From Escherichia coli (GTDB lineage Bacteria; Pseudomonadota; Gammaproteobacteria; Enterobacterales; Enterobacteriaceae), in the NCBI RefSeq assembly GCF_965641715.1, contig NZ_OZ282454.1: a stretch of DNA of 64,000 nucleotides; one strand, 5' to 3'. The number at the start of each line of letters is the position of its first letter. Within the stretch, counting starts at the first letter, position 1. Position numbers and translations under genes: made by a program. Below, one piece after another: positions 1,971-14,241 of the stretch. Under the pieces are notes generated by a model. It saw nothing but the letters and a program-made list of their open reading frames with translations, did no database searches and was not told the DNA's origin.

Positions 1971-3779
1971 TTACTGTCCTGCCTGTTTCAGCTGGTCAGC
2001 AATCTGCTCTTTCACTTTCTGCGTCAGAACACCACTGTCCGGGATTTTCTGGTTATTCATCAGGTCTTCGTAGAAGTTAGTGAAATCCAGTCTGTCGAAC
2101 TGAATTTTCTGCAGCTCATCAACCGTAATCCCCCGACAGTCAGGATGTTTCGCACTGCCAAAACTGATACGCAGCTGTCCGTTGCGCCCCTGCTGCTGGA
2201 CTATCTGCGCCAGCTTCGAATCAAACTGACAGTAACTGCGTTTTTTCTCCAGGCAGACACCCAGCACTTTCTTCGAACAGAACTCTCCGACACTGACGGT
2301 CAGTTTGTTTGATTTTGCTTTAGCCAGGGCCTTTTCATCACTGCTGCATTTGGCCAGCCCGATATCCTGTCCCCAGCCGCTGTCCTTACAGCAGTTGCTG
2401 TATCCGGCTGCAGCCTTCTTACAAAATTTCGCCTGACCGGTGAAAGCACGGACATCCACCCCGTTCAGCGCCGCAACATCCTTACCTGCTGCGGCCAGTG
2501 CCGCCAGCTGAGAAACGGCTTCGGCAAAATCATTACTCTGCCCGCTCTGAGCCTTATCACATTCGCCATCGAGACAGAAGACGTCTCCCCCACAGACCAT
2601 CACTTTCCCGGATGTTTTTGACTCACAGGAGTAGGTGGCATATTCATGCAGACAGGCACCTTCTTCGGAGTAAAAGGCGCACTGGTGTGACACCAGGGTA
2701 CAGGCAGGATTGTCGGTGTAGGTCTGACAGGTTCCCTTGTCTGCTGACTGCGTGACATACGTGTCCCGGTATGCCCAGCAGCTCTGGTACATGCTGTATG
2801 ACTGACCATCTTTCACCAGCGTCCTGTTCTCGCCAGCCTCCGTACATTCTGTTTTTGTCAGTTTCCCCAGCTCCTTGCTGAACGGGCAGCTTTCAGACCA
2901 GACAACATACGGGGTGTACGAGGCTTTTTTTACCCTGACAACCAGACGCAGCTTCATTGCCGTATGACGTCTGAATTTTGTATTCCCGACCCGGACGGGG
3001 TGAGATGACGTAAAAGCAACACCGGCAGTCAGTGTTTTCTGTACTGGTGTAAATGAGGCATCTGCTGAGTATTTGGCATTCCAGCTCAGTGGGGTTCCCA
3101 GTACTGTAATTGTCATAGGTACACTCTTCTGCAGGTAAGTACGACTCCAGCTGTAATGCGCATCGACAATTTCACCGGTAACGGGAGAGGTAATGGAGAC
3201 AACATACTGACCATTCACTTCACGTGCAGGTAGCTGACTCATTTCATACTCCAGCGTCCGGGTTTCCCATGTGGTACTCCCCTGCAGCTCCATACGGGCA
3301 GTTCGTGTGCAGTACTGCTCCACCTGTAAATCCCTCTCACAGGAGTAATTCGTGTATTCACTCCGGCTAATCTCCTGCGCACTGCACTGCTGCCCGGTGT
3401 TTCCCACAATGCTGTCAGCCCGGTTCACCACATCCCTGCCGGTCTGGATAAACGGTGCATCCGGTGAAAGAATGTCTTTCGGCTTGTTCATGAATGACTC
3501 TGTGATGGTTTTTCCGGTTTCACCGGTCGCCCATTCCGTGGTGCCGTCATTTTTCAGGCCACCATCCCCGCCGGCAGTCACGCCACCGTAATATTTTGTC
3601 TCGTCCGGATTCGCGTTATAGCCGGGGATACTCTCCTGTGGCTTAAAGCCCTGAATACTGCTGCTTCCCTGTCCTTTGATCTGGTGAGCAAAATCAGAGC
3701 CGGCCCGGTAATCACTGTTGCTGTCAGCCTGTGCCATGCCGGCAACCAGAGCCAGTATCAGAGGTAAAATACGTTTCAT
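1971..3779 (-). CDS. traN: TraN mating-pair stabilization outer-membrane protein
   Basis: 602 aa Cys-rich ORF with signal peptide; length and position match F TraN. Confidence 0.92.
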   Translation of the reverse strand: MKRILPLILALVAGMAQADSNSDYRAGSDFAHQIKGQGSSSIQGFKPQESIPGYNANPDETKYYGGVTAGGDGGLKNDGTTEWATGETGKTITESFMNKPKDILSPDAPFIQTGRDVVNRADSIVGNTGQQCSAQEISRSEYTNYSCERDLQVEQYCTRTARMELQGSTTWETRTLEYEMSQLPAREVNGQYVVSITSPVTGEIVDAHYSWSRTYLQKSVPMTITVLGTPLSWNAKYSADASFTPVQKTLTAGVAFTSSHPVRVGNTKFRRHTAMKLRLVVRVKKASYTPYVVWSESCPFSKELGKLTKTECTEAGENRTLVKDGQSYSMYQSCWAYRDTYVTQSADKGTCQTYTDNPACTLVSHQCAFYSEEGACLHEYATYSCESKTSGKVMVCGGDVFCLDGECDKAQSGQSNDFAEAVSQLAALAAAGKDVAALNGVDVRAFTGQAKFCKKAAAGYSNCCKDSGWGQDIGLAKCSSDEKALAKAKSNKLTVSVGEFCSKKVLGVCLEKKRSYCQFDSKLAQIVQQQGRNGQLRISFGSAKHPDCRGITVDELQKIQFDRLDFTNFYEDLMNNQKIPDSGVLTQKVKEQIADQLKQAGQ

Positions 3780-6044: not shown

Positions 6045-6427
6045 GGTTCCGCCCTCATTCGCCGGGCAATATCCTGCTGGATTTCCCGGGTGATATCCGG
6101 TGCCCCCTGTACCACAGCAGGCGACACCAGAATGACCGCGTGGTGTTTCTGCTGCCACGCCTGCAGGCTGGCTTCCAGTGCCGTGTTAAAACGCGCTGAA
6201 AGGGCTTTTGACTGTGCTTCTGACAGTTGTTTCTGACTGGCGCTGTCAAAAAACGCATCCACGGTCTGTTTCATGTTGAAGGCGACAGTCACCGGTGCGT
6301 TCAGTCTGACAATGCCGTAGCTGACGGCTGCGTTCAGTAACACTATTGCCAGGCATCCCGGCACCGTCCACCACCAGTGGCTGCGTCGTTCTGCCGTGAC
6401 GTCGGCGGGTTTCTGCGTTGAACTCAT
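6041..6427 (-). CDS. trbI: TrbI pilus retraction protein
   Basis: 128 aa ORF; operon position directly after traC. Confidence 0.85.
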   Translation of the reverse strand: MSSTQKPADVTAERRSHWWWTVPGCLAIVLLNAAVSYGIVRLNAPVTVAFNMKQTVDAFFDSASQKQLSEAQSKALSARFNTALEASLQAWQQKHHAVILVSPAVVQGAPDITREIQQDIARRMRAEP

Positions 6428-9054
6428 GCCACACTCCTGTATTTCTCATGTTCTTCCAGCCAGGCTTCCAGCGAAGCCATCTCCGGCCCTGACTTCTTCC
6501 ACGCCAGCTGCCACACCGCCTCATGAATACTCAGCCCCTCTTTACGCTTCTGCTGCACAAACTCAAAATCCGGGCCGTCAGAGCTGTACATGGCGCGGCT
6601 TAACGGGTCCACAAACAGACGGTGCCAGGAGGAGTGGTTCTCCACCTGCAGCAGGAAGGAACTGAACCACTGGTCTTTGGCCGCACCAAACTTACCAATC
6701 ATGTCGCGCTGCAGTGGCAGGAACTGGTCCGGATACAGCTGGTTGTATTTCGCGAACTCCTTCGCACTCTGTTTGAGGATCATTTTGTAGGAGGAGTTAC
6801 CCCATGCCGCGCGGGCAGCACTGGAGGCCTTGTCAGAGTCAAAGTCGACGATGTTCTGTGTGATGGTGATATAGGCACCGGTATGACGGCGGGCGGTACG
6901 GTAGCCTTTCTCAATAAATTCACCGACCTTGTGATTTTTGAAGTCCAGCAGACGCCAGCCTTCATCAATAACGTTCAGTTTCTTGAGGTTACGCGGCGTG
7001 CGGTACATCCTGTTCTCGATGTAGATAATCAGGGAGAACATCACCGCAACCAGCAGTGACGGACGGTCTTCCAGTCCGCCCAGCTCCAGCACCACCATTT
7101 TTGCGTCATCCCGCAGGGACGGCTCATCAGAGTTAAAATACTGGCCGTAAGTGCCGTTGGCAGTGTACTGGTCAAGCAGCACAATCATTTCGTCCAGACG
7201 GCTGCGGATAGTCGGTGACTCGGCATACTGCTCGCTGTCACTGGCGTTTTTCAGGAAATCCACCACGTCATCAATACGTGCCCTGTTCTCTTTGGCCAGC
7301 CATGATGCCCTGACCGCCTGCAGCAGCAGACCTTCATGCACTTCATCCAGGTTACCGTTGGGGCTGGCCATCACCGACAGCTGGTCGCGGACACGCTCCG
7401 CTGACTGGTCAATATCGGTGATGTTCGCAAACGGGTTAAAGCGCAAGGTTTCACCGTCCAGATATACGCCCCCCATGTTCTCACACAGGGACTTGTAGCC
7501 ATCCCCCATGTCGAACACCACGGCAAAGCCCCCGGAGTCCAGCACGCTGCGGATAAGTGGCTGTATCAGCCCGGTTTTACCGGCCCCGGAGGTGCCACAG
7601 ACCGCCATGTTGTAGTTGGTGTTATTCATCCCCCGGAAGAAAATATCGATAAACGCCAGCTGGTTACGGTAGGTGGGTGCCAGCAGACCTGCCGGTGTCA
7701 GGGGGTTATCCGCCACTAACGGCATCAGGTTGGCAACATTAAAGCTCTCTGCGCGCTGAACCACTCCGGCCTCTTTCAGCTGTTTAAACAGCCCTTTCCC
7801 GGCCATAAAGGGCAGGCAGGTCAGGAAATTGCGCATGTGGTTAAAGCGCGGTGAAATCAGCTCAAAACCGTTTTTACGAAAGCTGTTCAGGATGTCCTGC
7901 TCCACTTCCAGCGCCGTTTCATTATTGTCCTTGCAGAATGCTGTGATGTTGAGGAAGTAGGACACCACGGAGGACTGACCGGAGCCCAGCCGCTGACGCA
8001 GTTCCCCCCACTCCTTCGCCTCTTTCTCCACGGACGGAAACCATTTGGCATAGGAGGTCTTCGACTTTTTCTCCAGGTCCATGTACTTCAGGCTGGCTTC
8101 GCTGTGGGTTTTCACCTGGTCTTCCACCACCAGAGTCAGCGTCAGGATGAACGGACAGGAGATGGATAATTCCGGGTTCAGCAGGTTGCTGTAGTTGTCG
8201 GCCATGTTCCACAGGAAGGCGATTTCCGGGTTACGGGCCAGATGGAAATTCAGGATGCGGGCCGTGCTGTTCCTGCCGTTCTCACGCAGGCCCAGCGTCA
8301 GGTAATCAGCCCGGACTTTCAGATCAAAACTGTCCTCCACACACTGATAATTCAGATCAGAATACGGGTCCAGCTGACGTCTTTTCGGGTACAGGGAGTC
8401 CGGGTTATGGTTAATCATCTCCCCGACAATATCGATAAAGGCCTGTGCATCCACCGTCTGTGTGGTGATACTGGCCCCCTGTAACGACGCCCGGATGATT
8501 TTCACCAGGTTTTCCATTTCCAGAATGTCGGCCCGGCTTTTTTTCTTCGAAGGAGAACAGTACGAGATAAACACCCGGTAATGGCGCAGGGTCAGGGGCA
8601 GATTCATCCCCTCCGGCAGCGGAAACTGTGTCGCTGCCGCTTTCATATAATAGGCCCGGGTAATGGCGTTAAACCGTTCAGCCTGTTCACCTGACCAGGA
8701 GAACTCACGCAGCCCGTATTCAATCCTGTCACCAACCAGCTGACTGGACATCAGATGGATACACAACGGAATACCGCGCGGCAGTTTGGTGCGCAGCATG
8801 TGATCGAGGGCCTCCACAATGGACTCATTCGCCCCATTGATGGGAATGGCTTCCAGCATAAAGCCCATCGTGGTGTCATTCATGAACAGACCGGATTCCT
8901 GGTTATAATCACGGTACGGCAGCAGACGGCTGAACTGCGGGAAGCTCATTTCGCCCAGAACTTCATTGGCCTTTGCGGATTCGTCAGGCAGTTTCAGTGC
9001 TGTGACGAGGGAGTTAACCGCCTGAGTGACGGCCTCAAGTGGGTTATTACTCAT
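6424..9054 (-). CDS. traC: TraC conjugative ATPase (VirB4 family)
   Basis: 876 aa ORF near-identical to recalled F TraC N-terminus (NNPLEAVTQAVNSLVTALKLPDESAKANEVLGEMSFPQFSRLLPYRDYNQESGLFMNDTTMGFMLEAIPINGANESIVEALDHMLRTKLPRGIP); Walker A GTSGAGKT. Confidence 0.96.
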   Translation of the reverse strand: MSNNPLEAVTQAVNSLVTALKLPDESAKANEVLGEMSFPQFSRLLPYRDYNQESGLFMNDTTMGFMLEAIPINGANESIVEALDHMLRTKLPRGIPLCIHLMSSQLVGDRIEYGLREFSWSGEQAERFNAITRAYYMKAAATQFPLPEGMNLPLTLRHYRVFISYCSPSKKKSRADILEMENLVKIIRASLQGASITTQTVDAQAFIDIVGEMINHNPDSLYPKRRQLDPYSDLNYQCVEDSFDLKVRADYLTLGLRENGRNSTARILNFHLARNPEIAFLWNMADNYSNLLNPELSISCPFILTLTLVVEDQVKTHSEASLKYMDLEKKSKTSYAKWFPSVEKEAKEWGELRQRLGSGQSSVVSYFLNITAFCKDNNETALEVEQDILNSFRKNGFELISPRFNHMRNFLTCLPFMAGKGLFKQLKEAGVVQRAESFNVANLMPLVADNPLTPAGLLAPTYRNQLAFIDIFFRGMNNTNYNMAVCGTSGAGKTGLIQPLIRSVLDSGGFAVVFDMGDGYKSLCENMGGVYLDGETLRFNPFANITDIDQSAERVRDQLSVMASPNGNLDEVHEGLLLQAVRASWLAKENRARIDDVVDFLKNASDSEQYAESPTIRSRLDEMIVLLDQYTANGTYGQYFNSDEPSLRDDAKMVVLELGGLEDRPSLLVAVMFSLIIYIENRMYRTPRNLKKLNVIDEGWRLLDFKNHKVGEFIEKGYRTARRHTGAYITITQNIVDFDSDKASSAARAAWGNSSYKMILKQSAKEFAKYNQLYPDQFLPLQRDMIGKFGAAKDQWFSSFLLQVENHSSWHRLFVDPLSRAMYSSDGPDFEFVQQKRKEGLSIHEAVWQLAWKKSGPEMASLEAWLEEHEKYRSVA

Positions 9055-9179
9055 ATGAGTATTCCTTAGTGCGTTTAAAAAAGGAAAATATCAGTCTGTG
9101 GCCGTGGATATATCACGCAGTGCCATTCCTGAAACCACAGCACAAATAAGAGATGGAGGCTTTTAACAGGAAACTAGGA

Positions 9180-9569
9180 TTAACGTTCCTTTACTGAATG
9201 AGCATCATTTAATGCCTGAATTTGTTTTTCGCGAATCTTATTGCGCTCATTTTCTCTTACCCGTTTCACCTCTGCCATTTCGTTTCTTTCTCTACACGCT
9301 GATGCAAGCTCTTTTGCCTTACCAAGACTTAAAGGTTCAGGCTGATAATCAGATGTGTCAGACTTAATAGCTTCCTTAAATGCTTCTGCTGCACAGGGGA
9401 TATCCTGTGTAATCTCTGTCAGTTGTTCTGGTGTTGCAGGTTGTTGCTCAAGGTAGTCATTGTAAAAAAGACCACATATCAACATAGCCATAACGCCAAC
9501 AAATATAAAAGCCAGAACAGATTCTAAATATATCGACTTCATTTCATTTTCCTTTGAAGCAGTAAGCAC
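9180..9569 (-). CDS. hypothetical membrane-anchored protein (cargo inside tra operon)
   Basis: 129 aa ORF with one N-terminal TM helix, charged C-terminus; AT-rich relative to flanking tra genes; no homolog recalled. Confidence 0.5.
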   Translation of the reverse strand: MLTASKENEMKSIYLESVLAFIFVGVMAMLICGLFYNDYLEQQPATPEQLTEITQDIPCAAEAFKEAIKSDTSDYQPEPLSLGKAKELASACRERNEMAEVKRVRENERNKIREKQIQALNDAHSVKER

Positions 9570-9785
9570 TCATTGCCCCCCATTCAGTGTATCCATCACG
9601 TTGTTCAAAGGTTTATTTGTTTTAACTTCAATACATTCCCCTGTATTTCCAAATCCCCTGCCTCCGTGTGATTCGATTGTCCGAAGAACCTGCACGCATA
9701 CGTCCGTATTTGGCATGGGTGTAATATTCCAGCTTCCGCCACCGTTAATATTTTTTATCAGCACAAGAAAAATAAAGGTATGCAT
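9570..9785 (-). CDS. hypothetical small protein (cargo inside tra operon)
   Basis: 71 aa ORF abutting 9180-9569 (stop/start adjacent); AT-rich. Confidence 0.35.
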   Translation of the reverse strand: MHTFIFLVLIKNINGGGSWNITPMPNTDVCVQVLRTIESHGGRGFGNTGECIEVKTNKPLNNVMDTLNGGQ

Positions 9786-9864
9786 TCTTTATTACCTCCG
9801 CTTGTATATTAATCACTGAATATCCCTTCAGTTAACTTATGAGGTCATAAAACACTGCAGATTC

Positions 9865-10338
9865 TCATTCGGATTTATTCCCTTCAGTAAACTTCCGAAT
9901 AGTATCCTGTTCACGCTGACGGGTGGCAGACTCCTGCATTGCATCCACTTTCTCCTGCCAGAGACGCCGGATATCCTTTTCATCCCGACCAGTCAGTTTT
10001 TTACCGGACAGCAGACGGTTAAGCAGTTCCTGTCTCGCATCCGGTACGTCTTCAGTCAGACGCATAAGCTGAACCAGGCTCTGACGGCTGAGGACCATGA
10101 GTGATTCCGGCAGGAGGGTGAAGAAGAAAATAAAAAAGCATACCGCACCACAGCAGGCAAGGACCGCAAACAGGATTTTCAGATATATACCATCAACGCC
10201 GAACGCAGCAATAATACAGGGAATCCATGCAATACACGCACAAAACGCCAGGATGTTATATATCCGGTTATGTCTGCAATATATCTGTTGATGTTCATCC
10301 AGAATAAAATCTATTTTTTCATTTTCTGATTTATGCAT
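9865..10338 (-). CDS. hypothetical two-TM membrane protein (cargo inside tra operon)
   Basis: ORF 9865-10377; likely start at internal Met (MHKSENEKIDF); Cys-rich hydrophobic hairpin then charged tail. Confidence 0.5.
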   Translation of the reverse strand: MHKSENEKIDFILDEHQQIYCRHNRIYNILAFCACIAWIPCIIAAFGVDGIYLKILFAVLACCGAVCFFIFFFTLLPESLMVLSRQSLVQLMRLTEDVPDARQELLNRLLSGKKLTGRDEKDIRRLWQEKVDAMQESATRQREQDTIRKFTEGNKSE

Positions 10339-10552
10339 AGTGTTTCCTCTGCCTTTCCTGATACGCCTGACATTCAACGCACAACGTCACACCGGGAAAT
10401 ATTTTCCGCCGGGCTTCCGGAATAGGATTTCCGCATGCTTCACAGAGATAAACAGGAATACTATGAACATTTATTTTCTGGCGTATCCGGTTTATTCCTG
10501 TCATGGTCAGTTGTTCTGTCACTGAATATGCTTCATCGGCTTCATCACTCAC
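10331..10552 (-). CDS. traR: TraR (DksA/TraR C4 zinc-finger family)
   Basis: 73 aa with CxxC...CxxC (CEACGNPIPEARRKIFPGVTLCVECQ). Confidence 0.9.
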   Translation of the reverse strand: MSDEADEAYSVTEQLTMTGINRIRQKINVHSIPVYLCEACGNPIPEARRKIFPGVTLCVECQAYQERQRKHYA

Positions 10553-10686
10553 GGAATATTCCTCCCGACATGTTCTGACACGCTACCGCCCATCCCTTTT
10601 CACGCACAGGGCACTCGTTTTACAGGCAGATTATGAATACAGAAAGCCCGCCGGCATTGCCGGCTGATATACAACTTCAGGGCCAG

Positions 10687-11202
10687 TTAATTAATGCGTG
10701 GTTTTCCCCACGCAGACGGTTTAATAACAAAAAACACGCTGGATGGCTGATGATAAACATCCTGATTATCAATATAAGGCGCTATCCATAATGCTGCCGT
10801 CTGCTCACCCGTTCTTAGCGGACGGGGAGGTGTTACCGGCGCAACTGAACTGACCGGAACAACCGTTTTCACTTCCCGGGCAGCCGTAAACAATGGACGT
10901 GGTGCCAGCAGTTTCTGCTCCGGAAGTGCTGTCACCGCTGGTCTGCTGCCGGACGGAGTGGTCGCGGTGACGGTCTGCACCGGCATTGTCCGGAAGTTCC
11001 CTTCAGCCAGGCGCGGCAGTGATGCCGCAACCGGCTTTGCTTCTGAGGACTGCTCCAGTTTTTTGGCCTTCTCATTGGCCTGCTCCATCGTCATACAGGT
11101 ATCGGATGTGGTGGCGTTACACTCAAATTCCGTATTTGTTCCAGCGCAGCCGGAAAGTAATAAGGTCCCCAGCAGAGGAATAAATAAAGAAATCTGTTTC
11201 AT
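10687..11202 (-). CDS. traV: TraV outer-membrane lipoprotein
   Basis: 171 aa; lipobox LLLSGC; operon position. Confidence 0.9.
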   Translation of the reverse strand: MKQISLFIPLLGTLLLSGCAGTNTEFECNATTSDTCMTMEQANEKAKKLEQSSEAKPVAASLPRLAEGNFRTMPVQTVTATTPSGSRPAVTALPEQKLLAPRPLFTAAREVKTVVPVSSVAPVTPPRPLRTGEQTAALWIAPYIDNQDVYHQPSSVFFVIKPSAWGKPRIN

Positions 11203-11450
11203 TGCCCTTCACCTTTTTTATTACTCCCCACAACAGCAGAAATTAACTCTGCTGTCAGATTTGTTTTCCCTGCACAGGGATGTCCGGAGACCACTGTATT
11301 TCCCGGAGAAGAAAATAAGCTCATCGACATTCCCTTCTTCATCACACCGACAGCAGCCATATTAAAATTGTGCGGCAATGATTCAGAACTGAACTCCTTC
11401 GGAGCAGGAAGAACTATTTTTGTGGTGCAGTTACTGAGAACAGCATGCAT
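11199..11450 (-). CDS. trbG: TrbG
   Basis: 83 aa from internal Met of ORF 11199-11567; length and position as in F; trbD location not resolved. Confidence 0.6.
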   Translation of the reverse strand: MHAVLSNCTTKIVLPAPKEFSSESLPHNFNMAAVGVMKKGMSMSLFSSPGNTVVSGHPCAGKTNLTAELISAVVGSNKKGEGQ

Positions 11451-11505
11451 AAAATCATCTGATACGTTTTTATCTGGCACAACGCGGGCTGTAATAACAT
11501 TAATA

Positions 11506-12096
11506 TTACGCATGTTCATTTTTATCTCCGTTGCTTCTGTTTGTTCGGTCATCAGGGAAATAAACATGGCATTTCCTGATTTTTCCCGGCAGGGAAGCGT
11601 CTTCCGTATAAACGTCCTTCAGATATTCATCTGCGGTTACCACCCGGATACATTTCATTTTTCCGGGCAGCACCGGATATTTCCCGGTGATCGCTGCCAG
11701 CGAGACATACATCAGTGCCAGTGTTGCCCATAATGCGGTGACCAGTTGCATCAGTGACCGGTCAGTCTCCCTGACATAATCTGCAGCATCAGCCGCGCGG
11801 TAATGGCAGATATCCTGTATTTCTGATCTGCCTGAAGAATCAGAGGAAGAAAACCAGCATTCACTGACCGGGAACTGTCCGGCAGGTGCTGTTTGTCTTA
11901 CGAAGTTAATCTCCTTAACCAGTAATTTCCCCGGCGTGGTGTTGTCCTTCCATAAAACAAACAGAGCCATCAGGGCCATTGTGGCCAGAGGCAGAATGAC
12001 GGTGTACTTCAGACACCAGAACAGTCCTCGCAGAACCCGGGCGACAACATACCGGGCGGCATGGCACGCCTGACGGGCCGACATATTATTTGCCAT
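11506..12096 (-). CDS. traP: TraP inner-membrane protein
   Basis: 196 aa as in F TraP; operon position. Confidence 0.85.
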   Translation of the reverse strand: MANNMSARQACHAARYVVARVLRGLFWCLKYTVILPLATMALMALFVLWKDNTTPGKLLVKEINFVRQTAPAGQFPVSECWFSSSDSSGRSEIQDICHYRAADAADYVRETDRSLMQLVTALWATLALMYVSLAAITGKYPVLPGKMKCIRVVTADEYLKDVYTEDASLPGKIRKCHVYFPDDRTNRSNGDKNEHA

Positions 12097-13513
12097 CGTT
12101 GCCTCCTCCCTGGCTGCCGGACATAAACTGCTGCGGATTCAGGTTGCCCAGCTGCTTCAGCATCTGGTCAGTATTAAAGCCGTTAAGATGACTTTCAGCT
12201 GATGGCGGAACAGGAACCGGACTTTCCGGATTATCTTCTTCCGCTCTGTTCTGCGTGCGCTCCAGCGCCATCTCTTCCACGGTTTTCAGCTGGAAGCCGT
12301 CCTGGAACACCACGGTCACTTCGTTGCCCGCACCAATCGGTATCACCGGGTGATACTGTTCGGCACGTTTGATGTAGTAGTCACTGAGCGTCTGTGCGGC
12401 TTTCGATGCGCCGCCACCGATACCCATTTTAAGGACATCGCCGGCCCCGTAAGCAGCAGTGGCACCCAGCCCGACAGCCGGCTGGGAAGCACGCTCCATT
12501 CCCTGACCGATACCGTCAACAAATCCCGCGCCCCATGCCCAGCCGAGGATTTTGCCGTTACGCATCACCACTTCGCCCTTAATACCGTTTTTACCCCGGA
12601 AGCTGACATGCCCCTTAATCGGCATATCAATGGTTTTGCCGTCCTTCAGGCAGCTGATATTGCGGGTACGTACAATGGCACGCTCACTGGAGACATCCCC
12701 CCAGGCTTCCAGACCCACAAAACATCCCTTTGCGTCATACGTTTTGCTGTTCGGCATTTCCACCAGGCCGATGATACGCAGCTGCATCGGCACCGTGGAT
12801 TCATTACCAGTAACAGAGGCATTGGCATCCGCCCCTTCAATCAGCATGGCTTTCGCAAAACTTCCTGACGGAATGTACGGCAGCGAGGGGCCCTGTTTTC
12901 CCTCATTACGGGTGAACACCTTACGCTGTATCCGGTTAGGCACCGGTACAGACTGGTACGTCACCTGCGGTGGTGGCGTGACACCATTCCCGGGATAAAA
13001 CGCCGTCGGCGGTGGAACAGCAACGCTGCCCTGCGGCGGGAAAGATACGGGTGTGTTTCCTGGCTGTGGTTCGCCTTCCGGGCCGGGCGGTGAGGCTGGC
13101 GTCTGCGGTACTGGCTCACCGGTCGCGGTGACAGGATTTGCACCCAGGGCTTTCACCTGCTCTGCCAGTGCAGCATTGTCCTGTCCCAGCTTTTCAATAC
13201 GACGCTGGTCATCACCGCGCTGTTTGTTCAGGACATCCAGCTCACGACGGATTTCCTCATACTGCTTCTGCATCTGTGCTGCCGTCACCTGCATCTCTGT
13301 GGTGGCATGCTGACGCACCTTGTCATCAAAGGTCGTATCCACCACACCGGTCATATCCGGCACAGGCTCCTGTTCAGCCACGGTTTCACCGTTACCGGAC
13401 ATGTCCACATCAGACAGATACAGTGCCCCACCAATCGCGGAGGCTGCACCGACAACCACAATCCCCAGCCACAGGTACTGCTTGCGTTTCACAATGGTAT
13501 TGATACTGGCCAT
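12086..13513 (-). CDS. traB: TraB (VirB10-like)
   Basis: 475 aa, N-terminal TM, Pro-rich linker, conserved C-terminal domain. Confidence 0.93.
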   Translation of the reverse strand: MASINTIVKRKQYLWLGIVVVGAASAIGGALYLSDVDMSGNGETVAEQEPVPDMTGVVDTTFDDKVRQHATTEMQVTAAQMQKQYEEIRRELDVLNKQRGDDQRRIEKLGQDNAALAEQVKALGANPVTATGEPVPQTPASPPGPEGEPQPGNTPVSFPPQGSVAVPPPTAFYPGNGVTPPPQVTYQSVPVPNRIQRKVFTRNEGKQGPSLPYIPSGSFAKAMLIEGADANASVTGNESTVPMQLRIIGLVEMPNSKTYDAKGCFVGLEAWGDVSSERAIVRTRNISCLKDGKTIDMPIKGHVSFRGKNGIKGEVVMRNGKILGWAWGAGFVDGIGQGMERASQPAVGLGATAAYGAGDVLKMGIGGGASKAAQTLSDYYIKRAEQYHPVIPIGAGNEVTVVFQDGFQLKTVEEMALERTQNRAEEDNPESPVPVPPSAESHLNGFNTDQMLKQLGNLNPQQFMSGSQGGGNDGK

Positions 13514-14241
13514 CAGTTGCCCTCCCCGTCACGGATGACATACACATCCATGCGCGCACCTGCCAGTAACTGGCTGGCAGGCTGGCTGAACATCACGGCA
13601 CGGGTTCCCGGCTGCCAGAAGTCACTTTCCCGGATATTCAGGGCAGACAGCGTTTTATTTTCCACGGCAAAGCGGATCATCTTCAGGTGATTCCCCGTCC
13701 ATACAGCATCTGCCACTGAAGACAGCCCCGCCGGGGTCTGCAGGGTTTCTTTTGTCACCGGGACCTGATACCAGCCTGCAGGTAATTTTCCGCCACGGAC
13801 GGCTTGGCTGATGGTCACAAGCAGGGATTCGTAAGGCGTGGACGTTTCCCACGCTCCGGCTTCTTCTCCGGTTCCGCGCAGGTCACTGACCAGCTGAATG
13901 GTACGCCCCGCGCCTTCACGGGGAACGGCCTGAATGGAAAGATTCAGACCACGTTCTGTTTCCAGAATGAACGTAAAGGGCTTTTTGTTGACGGTGGCCA
14001 CCACCACACCGCCGGAGGCGGTCTGCTCATTATTGGTCAGGGCACCATCCAGACTGTTCACGGCGATAATCCGGTCACCGGGAACGGTAAACAGATTCGG
14101 GCTGGTATTGCTGATGGCAATACTGGCCTGACCACCGTTCACCATTGGCACCACGGTGGGGGCCAGCGTACCGTTTGCGGCCATCACGCTGCAGGAAAAA
14201 AACAAGCTGCCGAATATTATTGCCGTATTATTTTTTCTCAT
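13513..14241 (-). CDS. traK: TraK (VirB9/secretin-like)
   Basis: 242 aa with signal peptide; operon position. Confidence 0.9.

Follow-up and report, generated by a model that had tools for sequence, protein, structure and literature searches.

What are the three small genes that lie between traR and traC in this Escherichia coli DNA, and did they arrive there as cargo? The window, the whole stretch of 64,000 nucleotides that we analyzed, carries a typical F-like tra operon segment on its minus strand (6424 to 14241), with the gene order traK, traB, traP, trbD, traV, traR, three small open reading frames (ORFs), and traC. An earlier note on this DNA had described the three ORFs as an AT-rich cassette of membrane protein genes, co-oriented with the tra operon and inserted between traR and traC. 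The ORF listing bears out the position, coordinates, and orientation. Upstream, the cassette is bounded by traR (10331 to 10552, minus strand), which encodes a 73-aa DksA-like zinc-finger regulator and matches the NCBIfam TraR model NF010268 over its full length (4.4e-53). The downstream boundary is traC (6424 to 9054, minus strand), which encodes an 876-aa type IV secretion ATPase and is annotated as traC in matching plasmids.

As longest ORFs, the three genes occupy 9865 to 10377 (170 aa, TTG start), 9570 to 9785 (71 aa), and 9180 to 9569 (129 aa, GTG start), and these are the sizes first reported. The starts of the first and third are probably not the true ones. For ORF1, the most likely start is an ATG at 10338 that overlaps the end of traR at its stop codon (ATGCATAA, reading …CAC TAT GCA TAA) and gives a 157-aa product (9865 to 10338, minus strand). 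ORF3 most likely begins at the ATG at 9542, downstream of AAGGAAAA, and encodes 120 aa (9180 to 9542, minus strand). Both starts match the annotation in near-identical plasmids and in the reference plasmid R100, which puts the probable product sizes at 157, 71, and 120 aa, and only the size of ORF2 (9570 to 9785, minus strand) stands as it was. On the same strand, a spacer at 9786 to 9864 separates ORF1 from ORF2 and carries a GGAGG ribosome-binding site ahead of ORF2, and a second spacer at 9055 to 9179 separates ORF3 from traC and includes the traC ribosome-binding site ACTAAGGAAT.

Homology identifies the three ORFs as yfiA, yfiB, and yfiC, a set of conserved hypothetical genes whose names go back to the annotation of R100 (NC_002134). 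The traR-traC interval of R100 contains four ORFs of 137, 157, 72, and 115 aa. We found that ORF1, ORF2, and ORF3 are homologous over their full length to the last three of these, with 94% (157 aa), 94% (72 aa), and 78% (115 aa) amino acid identity. They also share with R100 the position between traR and traC, the orientation of the tra genes, the gene order, the overlap with the traR stop, and a near-identical spacer before traC. Database names of homologues agree with this assignment (yfiA; YfiB among AFDB matches; "YfiC protein" in UniRef), and the alignments with R100 and F, which could have contradicted it, bear it out. R100 differs in having an additional first gene, yfhA, whose 137-aa product is a paralogue of ORF1 (62% identical); a 2009 paper already recorded that R100 has this extra copy and F does not (PMC2762410).

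Two allele types of yfiA can be told apart. The b type comprises the gene in the window and the 157-aa gene of R100, and the a type comprises R100 yfhA and full-length genes in other plasmids; the window carries the b type only. R100 yfhA is a C-terminally truncated a-type paralogue that ends in the last six residues of TraR, and its end forms the same ATG-overlap junction as that at traR. These two features indicate that the tandem yfhA/yfiA pair of R100 arose by unequal crossover. The a and b alleles differ by a dS of 0.3 to 0.45, while the adjoining traR genes have a dS of ~0, which shows that the alleles are exchanged by recombination. We searched the literature for yfhA, yfiA, yfiB, and yfiC, for the traR-traC region, for comparisons of R1 with R100, and for small membrane proteins encoded by F-like plasmids; the papers covered by this search include no functional study of the genes. 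The cassette is already known, as annotated but uncharacterized genes of a reference plasmid. The earlier note would have given up its reading for identical ORFs already characterized at this position; we found named homologues at 94, 94, and 78% identity and no functional characterization of them.

If R100 has these genes, then what happened in F? As the earlier note correctly stated, traC lies close behind traR in plasmid F (NC_002483), with 160 nt from the traR stop to the traC start and no annotated gene. The absence of the genes from F, a GC content below that of traC and traB, and membrane segments in two of the three proteins all favor horizontally acquired cargo that entered an F-type traR-traC junction and serves exclusion, phage-receptor masking, or recipient manipulation. 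However, the "empty" site of F holds a gene remnant rather than an intact junction. At the start of the F spacer, an ATG overlaps the traR stop just as in the window, and the sequence continues with MHKSVAEHSDLIPDEHEWIFRKQKSLYM…, the N terminus of an a-type yfiA/yfhA; a frameshift follows, and then a membrane-helix remnant (…GALITGIPFMATAFLALFFN, then a stop) that runs directly into the traC ribosome-binding site, which is the same as in the window. F keeps ~34 codons and the frameshifted helix remnant of this a-type gene and lacks yfiB and yfiC. On either side, F is near-identical to the window in traR (dS, 0.06) and in the N-terminal region of traC (dS, 0.06). Because its spacer is the remnant of a decayed yfiA-family gene, F has lost DNA and is a deletion derivative at the traR-traC junction.

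Other observations also argue against cargo. R100 and a Klebsiella IncFII plasmid both carry homologues at this site. In the window, the cassette has no flanking inverted repeats, and no direct repeats lie at its ends; the sole direct repeats are short, of a size expected by chance, and elsewhere. Mobility genes are absent, traR and trbD are equally AT-rich, and the three proteins match no defense or exclusion family. A near-identical plasmid already has a separate surface-exclusion protein and TraT, encoded between traG and traD. Recent insertion of cargo is essentially refuted, and the polarity implied by "inserted" is largely so, with the direction of change reversed; we regard cargo as a highly improbable explanation. 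The cassette instead appears to be an ancestral, optional tra operon segment of F-like plasmids. We hold this account of its identity and evolution with great confidence.

The GC content of the cassette is 0.42, compared with 0.545 in traC, 0.567 in traB, and 0.493 across the whole window. This AT-richness is genuine yet unexceptional, since the neighboring genes traR (0.446) and trbD (0.415) are comparably low and 16% of windows of equal size have a GC content equal to or lower than that of the cassette. We found no sigma-70-like promoter and no terminator on the minus strand between 8900 and 10800, and the start of ORF1 overlaps the traR stop, so that coexpression with the transfer genes, as the earlier note expected, is plausible. 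According to this model, yfiA, yfiB, and yfiC would be transcribed together with the transfer genes by read-through from an upstream tra operon promoter (PY in F), and translation of yfiA would be coupled to that of traR. An Rfam search of 8500 to 11500 gave no matches, and in RNA folding the yfiC-traC spacer showed no significant structure (z = 0.27). This spacer is near-identical in R100 and has only its last ~15 nt in common with F.

How widespread is the segment? We counted plasmids in PLSDB (72,556 plasmids). At least 80% of the cassette is covered in 1,169 to 1,213 plasmids, and the F-type junction is found in 2,231, in 1,869 of them at an identity of at least 99%. Together, the two states make up nearly all of the ~3,500 plasmids of this traR/traC type, the cassette being present in about one-third of E. 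coli-type F-like plasmids and the deletion in about two-thirds. Since more plasmids in nature have the deletion than the cassette, any benefit of the cassette must be small or conditional.

Searches by tblastn extended the distribution to Klebsiella. They found yfiB in 3,603 plasmids (2,344 of them from Klebsiella) and yfiC in 3,473 (2,237 from Klebsiella). Both genes are almost confined to conjugative plasmids (~97%), and all the loci that we inspected are F-type. One Klebsiella IncFII plasmid has seven small ORFs between traV and traC, with a YfiB homologue in third place (65% identity) and a YfiC homologue in sixth (37% identity), so the order is kept; we looked for a traR or yfiA homologue in this interval and found neither. 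In a pSLT-like plasmid, traR is accompanied by a yfiA homologue (47% identity) and by two small membrane protein ORFs that are unrelated, and yfiB and yfiC are missing. Signs of recombination at the site comprise the two yfiA allele types, the tandem duplication in R100, and the unrelated small membrane protein genes in pSLT-like and Klebsiella plasmids. The interval between traV or traR and traC is thus an old hotspot for the turnover of small genes, many of which encode membrane proteins.

That two-thirds of related plasmids deleted this DNA without obvious cost raises the question of whether the ORFs are real genes or decaying, nonfunctional leftovers, neutral DNA that persists inside the operon. 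We compared the genes by pairwise Nei-Gojobori estimates of dN/dS. For yfiB, dN/dS was 0.14 to 0.27, and this range includes the comparison with Klebsiella (dS, ~1.4). The value for the whole yfiA gene was 0.55 to 0.72, and it was unevenly distributed: residues 79 to 127, in the C-terminal domain, gave 0.25 to 0.32 and the N terminus gave ~0.4, whereas the membrane hairpin gave ~1.1 to 1.2 between a and b alleles. Against R100, yfiC gave 0.70. The N-terminal region of traC gave 0.04 to 0.23. The purifying selection seen in these values indicates that yfiB and the cytoplasmic domain of yfiA encode functional proteins. The fast evolution of yfiC and of the yfiA hairpin could reflect relaxed constraint rather than function.

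Those high values fit leftovers, as do frameshifted yfiB variants in the databases and the lack of a family or fold assignment for the proteins. In contrast, the low dN/dS of yfiB holds even across the divergence of E. coli and Klebsiella, and the C-terminal part of yfiA stays at ~0.3, with its motif kept in IncI1 and IncI2 homologues of only 27 to 41% identity. The reading frames were intact in all seven of the other cassettes that we extracted and translated, full-length intact forms dominate the large protein clusters, and the AlphaFold2 models are confident and compact. Neutral decay is therefore possible for yfiC and unlikely for yfiB and the C-terminal domain of yfiA; as an explanation of the cassette, we judge it to be decidedly unlikely. 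What this leaves is a set of genes that are under measurable purifying selection and have no assigned function, inside the best-studied conjugation operon.

What do the three proteins look like? A Kyte-Doolittle scan placed two membrane helices, which form a hairpin, in ORF1, none in ORF2, and one N-terminal helix in ORF3. Two of the proteins therefore have membrane segments; the earlier note gave hairpins to two, but only ORF1 has one. Of the three, YfiB shows the strongest conservation, and it has two conserved cysteines; its AlphaFold2 model (pLDDT, 79) is a small beta-beta-alpha-beta-alpha fold. We considered a signal peptide for YfiB and rejected it: the hydrophobic N terminus is modeled as a beta-strand, and no 19-residue window reaches the hydropathy of a membrane helix. 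In YfiC, the membrane helix is followed by a conserved segment and then by a charged helical tail. YfiC homologues share this segment, ATPEQL...PCAxExF (ATxEQL…PCAxExF is invariant in the alignment), and two cysteines are kept in most of them.

None of the three proteins had a significant match in Pfam, NCBIfam, PHROGs, or PADLOC; the best match to a PADLOC defense model (E = 0.027, 11.7 bits) was not significant. In NCBIfam, none of the three ORFs matched TraS or TraT. The PDB sequence search and the fold searches were uninformative. Together with the separate surface-exclusion and traT genes noted above, these results leave the proposed roles in exclusion, phage-receptor masking, and recipient manipulation unsupported.

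YfiA is the member about which comparison says most. Its predicted layout is an N-terminal cytoplasmic helix, a membrane hairpin at about residues 26 to 78, and a C-terminal cytoplasmic helical domain. The AlphaFold2 model (pLDDT, 81) is all helical, with helices at 5 to 47 and 51 to 75 and a three-helix C-terminal domain; the long N-terminal helix continues into membrane helix 1, and membrane helix 2 follows. In the family alignment, YfiA, YfhA, and YafA share the N-terminal motif MxKSxxEKIxFILDxH, the hydrophobic hairpin, and the C-terminal motif RLLSGKxLTGRDE. An exhaustive profile search (1.84 billion representatives) returned 116 matches, all of them members of this same narrow family or fragments, and the family profile had no match among PDB sequences.

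By tblastn, yfiA homologues are present in 2,923 plasmids, and some lie outside tra operons. The IncI1/K homologue yafA encodes a protein of 37 to 41% identity and sits just downstream of the FinO-domain gene yafB/fopA, near repA. The IncI2 homologue is 27% identical and lies beside hicAB. YafA of R64, pCol1B9, and pESBL resembles ORF1 in its full-length identity, in its architecture, and in both motifs. It differs in being replicon-proximal and outside the transfer operon and in having a longer C-terminal tail. The paper that named FopA describes the function of yafA as unknown (PMC7491321). In pESBL, transposon sequencing gave YafA (O3K_25762) a probability of 0.96 of being nonessential and of 0.00 of being required for transfer (PMC4288162). 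An 88-aa ORF downstream of yafA in IncI1 was considered as a relative of yfiB or yfiC and rejected; it shows just a weak echo of the yfiA motif.

The presence of homologues on IncI1 and IncI2 plasmids, which have different mating systems, argues against an F-pilus-specific role for ORF1, and yfiA at least may be unrelated to the F transfer apparatus. Are the three genes then one unit? YfiA/YafA might instead serve plasmids more generally, as a membrane factor with no link to the F pilus (a regulator or sensor, say, or a holin-like protein, or a specificity protein of the immunity or competition type), with only YfiB and YfiC specific to the F-type transfer apparatus. Consistently with such a division, the yfiA homologues accompany MPF_I in IncI1/K and MPF_T in IncI2, whereas yfiB and yfiC are, as noted earlier, nearly all on conjugative plasmids and at F-type loci. 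The Klebsiella interval has yfiB and yfiC without yfiA or traR, pSLT-like plasmids have yfiA without yfiB or yfiC, and the a and b alleles of yfiA have diverged on backbones whose traR genes have not. However, the three genes stay linked in ~1,200 plasmids, and the IncI1 homologue showed neither a maintenance nor a transfer phenotype in the transposon screen. We consider the division of the cassette into two systems unlikely.

The pattern of YfiA evolution, with conserved cytoplasmic domains, a hairpin that changes at or above roughly the neutral rate, deeply diverged alleles shuffled between near-identical backbones, and in some cases, such as R100, tandem a and b copies, resembles that of immunity- or exclusion-type proteins in conflicts between plasmids or over toxins. 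YfiA/YafA might thus be a specificity determinant shared across IncF, IncI1/K, and IncI2, part of an unrecognized system of plasmid competition or immunity. By analogy, such a function is conceivable, and we think it very unlikely. In that case, yfiB and yfiC would form a pair of their own, specific to F.

What, then, would yfiABC do in the tra operon? The genes do not belong to the type IV secretion and pilus components that every F-like system needs, as F and the 2,231 plasmids with the F-type junction lack them. Where they occur, the genes are maintained by selection, yet F is a classical transfer-proficient plasmid. Its lack of yfiABC and the dispensability of IncI1 YafA in the transposon screen suggest that the genes are dispensable. 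We favor, on balance, an ancestral, optional yfiABC segment that encodes dispensable accessory proteins as the best overall explanation of the locus. Its functional part, accessory proteins coexpressed with the transfer genes, we propose only tentatively. As predicted, YfiA would be an inner membrane protein with a hairpin and cytoplasmic domains, YfiB a small soluble protein of the alpha/beta class, and YfiC a protein that crosses the membrane once. They would be neither core parts of the secretion machine nor exclusion factors and might act as dispensable modulators of donor cell physiology or of the biogenesis of the transfer apparatus, under conditions that are not captured in the laboratory.

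The closest parallel is one of context. The small Tra and Trb proteins of F (TrbD, TrbE, TrbA, TrbJ, TrbI, TraP, and TraR) are likewise small, often membrane anchored, embedded in the tra operon, and co-oriented with it. Established F genetics shows that laboratory transfer does not need them, as Maneewannakul and Ippen-Ihler, for example, reportedly described in 1993 (cited in PMC5102898). They differ in having no sequence similarity to yfiABC, and the analogy is of context only. The practical weight of the cassette is low, as its genes entered the annotation with the R100 sequence, occur in thousands of plasmids, and are missing from most F-type plasmids. Because the laboratory model F lacks them, work on F cannot reveal what yfiABC does in resistance plasmids of the R100 and R1 types.

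One further trace of rearrangement lies within the cassette itself. The spacer between yfiA and yfiB contains a 16-nt repeat of the 3' end of yfiA (9823 to 9838 compared with 9879 to 9894), which may be a scar of an event resembling unequal crossover.

R100 carries yfhA (L004, the R100 locus, 2699-3112), which encodes a truncated, 137-aa a-type paralogue of YfiA. We found that the final six residues of YfhA, QRKHYA, together with the ATG-overlap junction that follows them, duplicate the 3' end of traR. This duplication indicates that yfhA arose by unequal crossover. The nominally intergenic DNA between traR and traC in plasmid F is a yfiA/yfhA pseudogene that has been truncated and carries a frameshift (L002, the F locus, 3574-3741), and this F-type junction also occurs in 2,231 PLSDB plasmids. 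In the window, the yfiA-yfiB spacer echoes the 3' end of yfiA as a 16-nt direct repeat (9823-9838 and 9879-9894; 15/16 identical). This repeat may be the scar of an earlier tandem yfiA copy.

Farther upstream in the operon, the window has the long, 122-aa form of trbD (11199-11567, minus strand), and traV directly adjoins it with no trbG between them. The same trbD/traV arrangement is found in R100. In contrast, plasmid F has a 63-aa trbD and contains trbG.

We also found the cassette, at 100% identity, in pRHB38-C13_2 (L011, CP055625, 23861-24773), a plasmid typed only as "mobilizable." Whereas traC is intact in the window, the stretch from traC to traI is entirely lost from this plasmid, and yfiC is followed by a 48-aa ORF and then traX.

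In the Klebsiella IncFII plasmid pCAV1193-78, the traV-traC interval (L005, 1018-3435) holds seven small ORFs, the majority of which encode membrane proteins. Homologues of yfiB and yfiC are present in this interval, and neither traR nor yfiA was found there. Two of its ORFs (94 and 134 aa) have a Cys-containing domain in common.

On three IncI1/K plasmids (L007, L008, and L010), the yfiA homologue yafA lies directly downstream of fopA (yafB), a FinO-domain RNA-chaperone gene. In L008 and L010, yafA is followed by an overlapping 88-aa ORF, which weakly echoes the C-terminal motif of YfiA.
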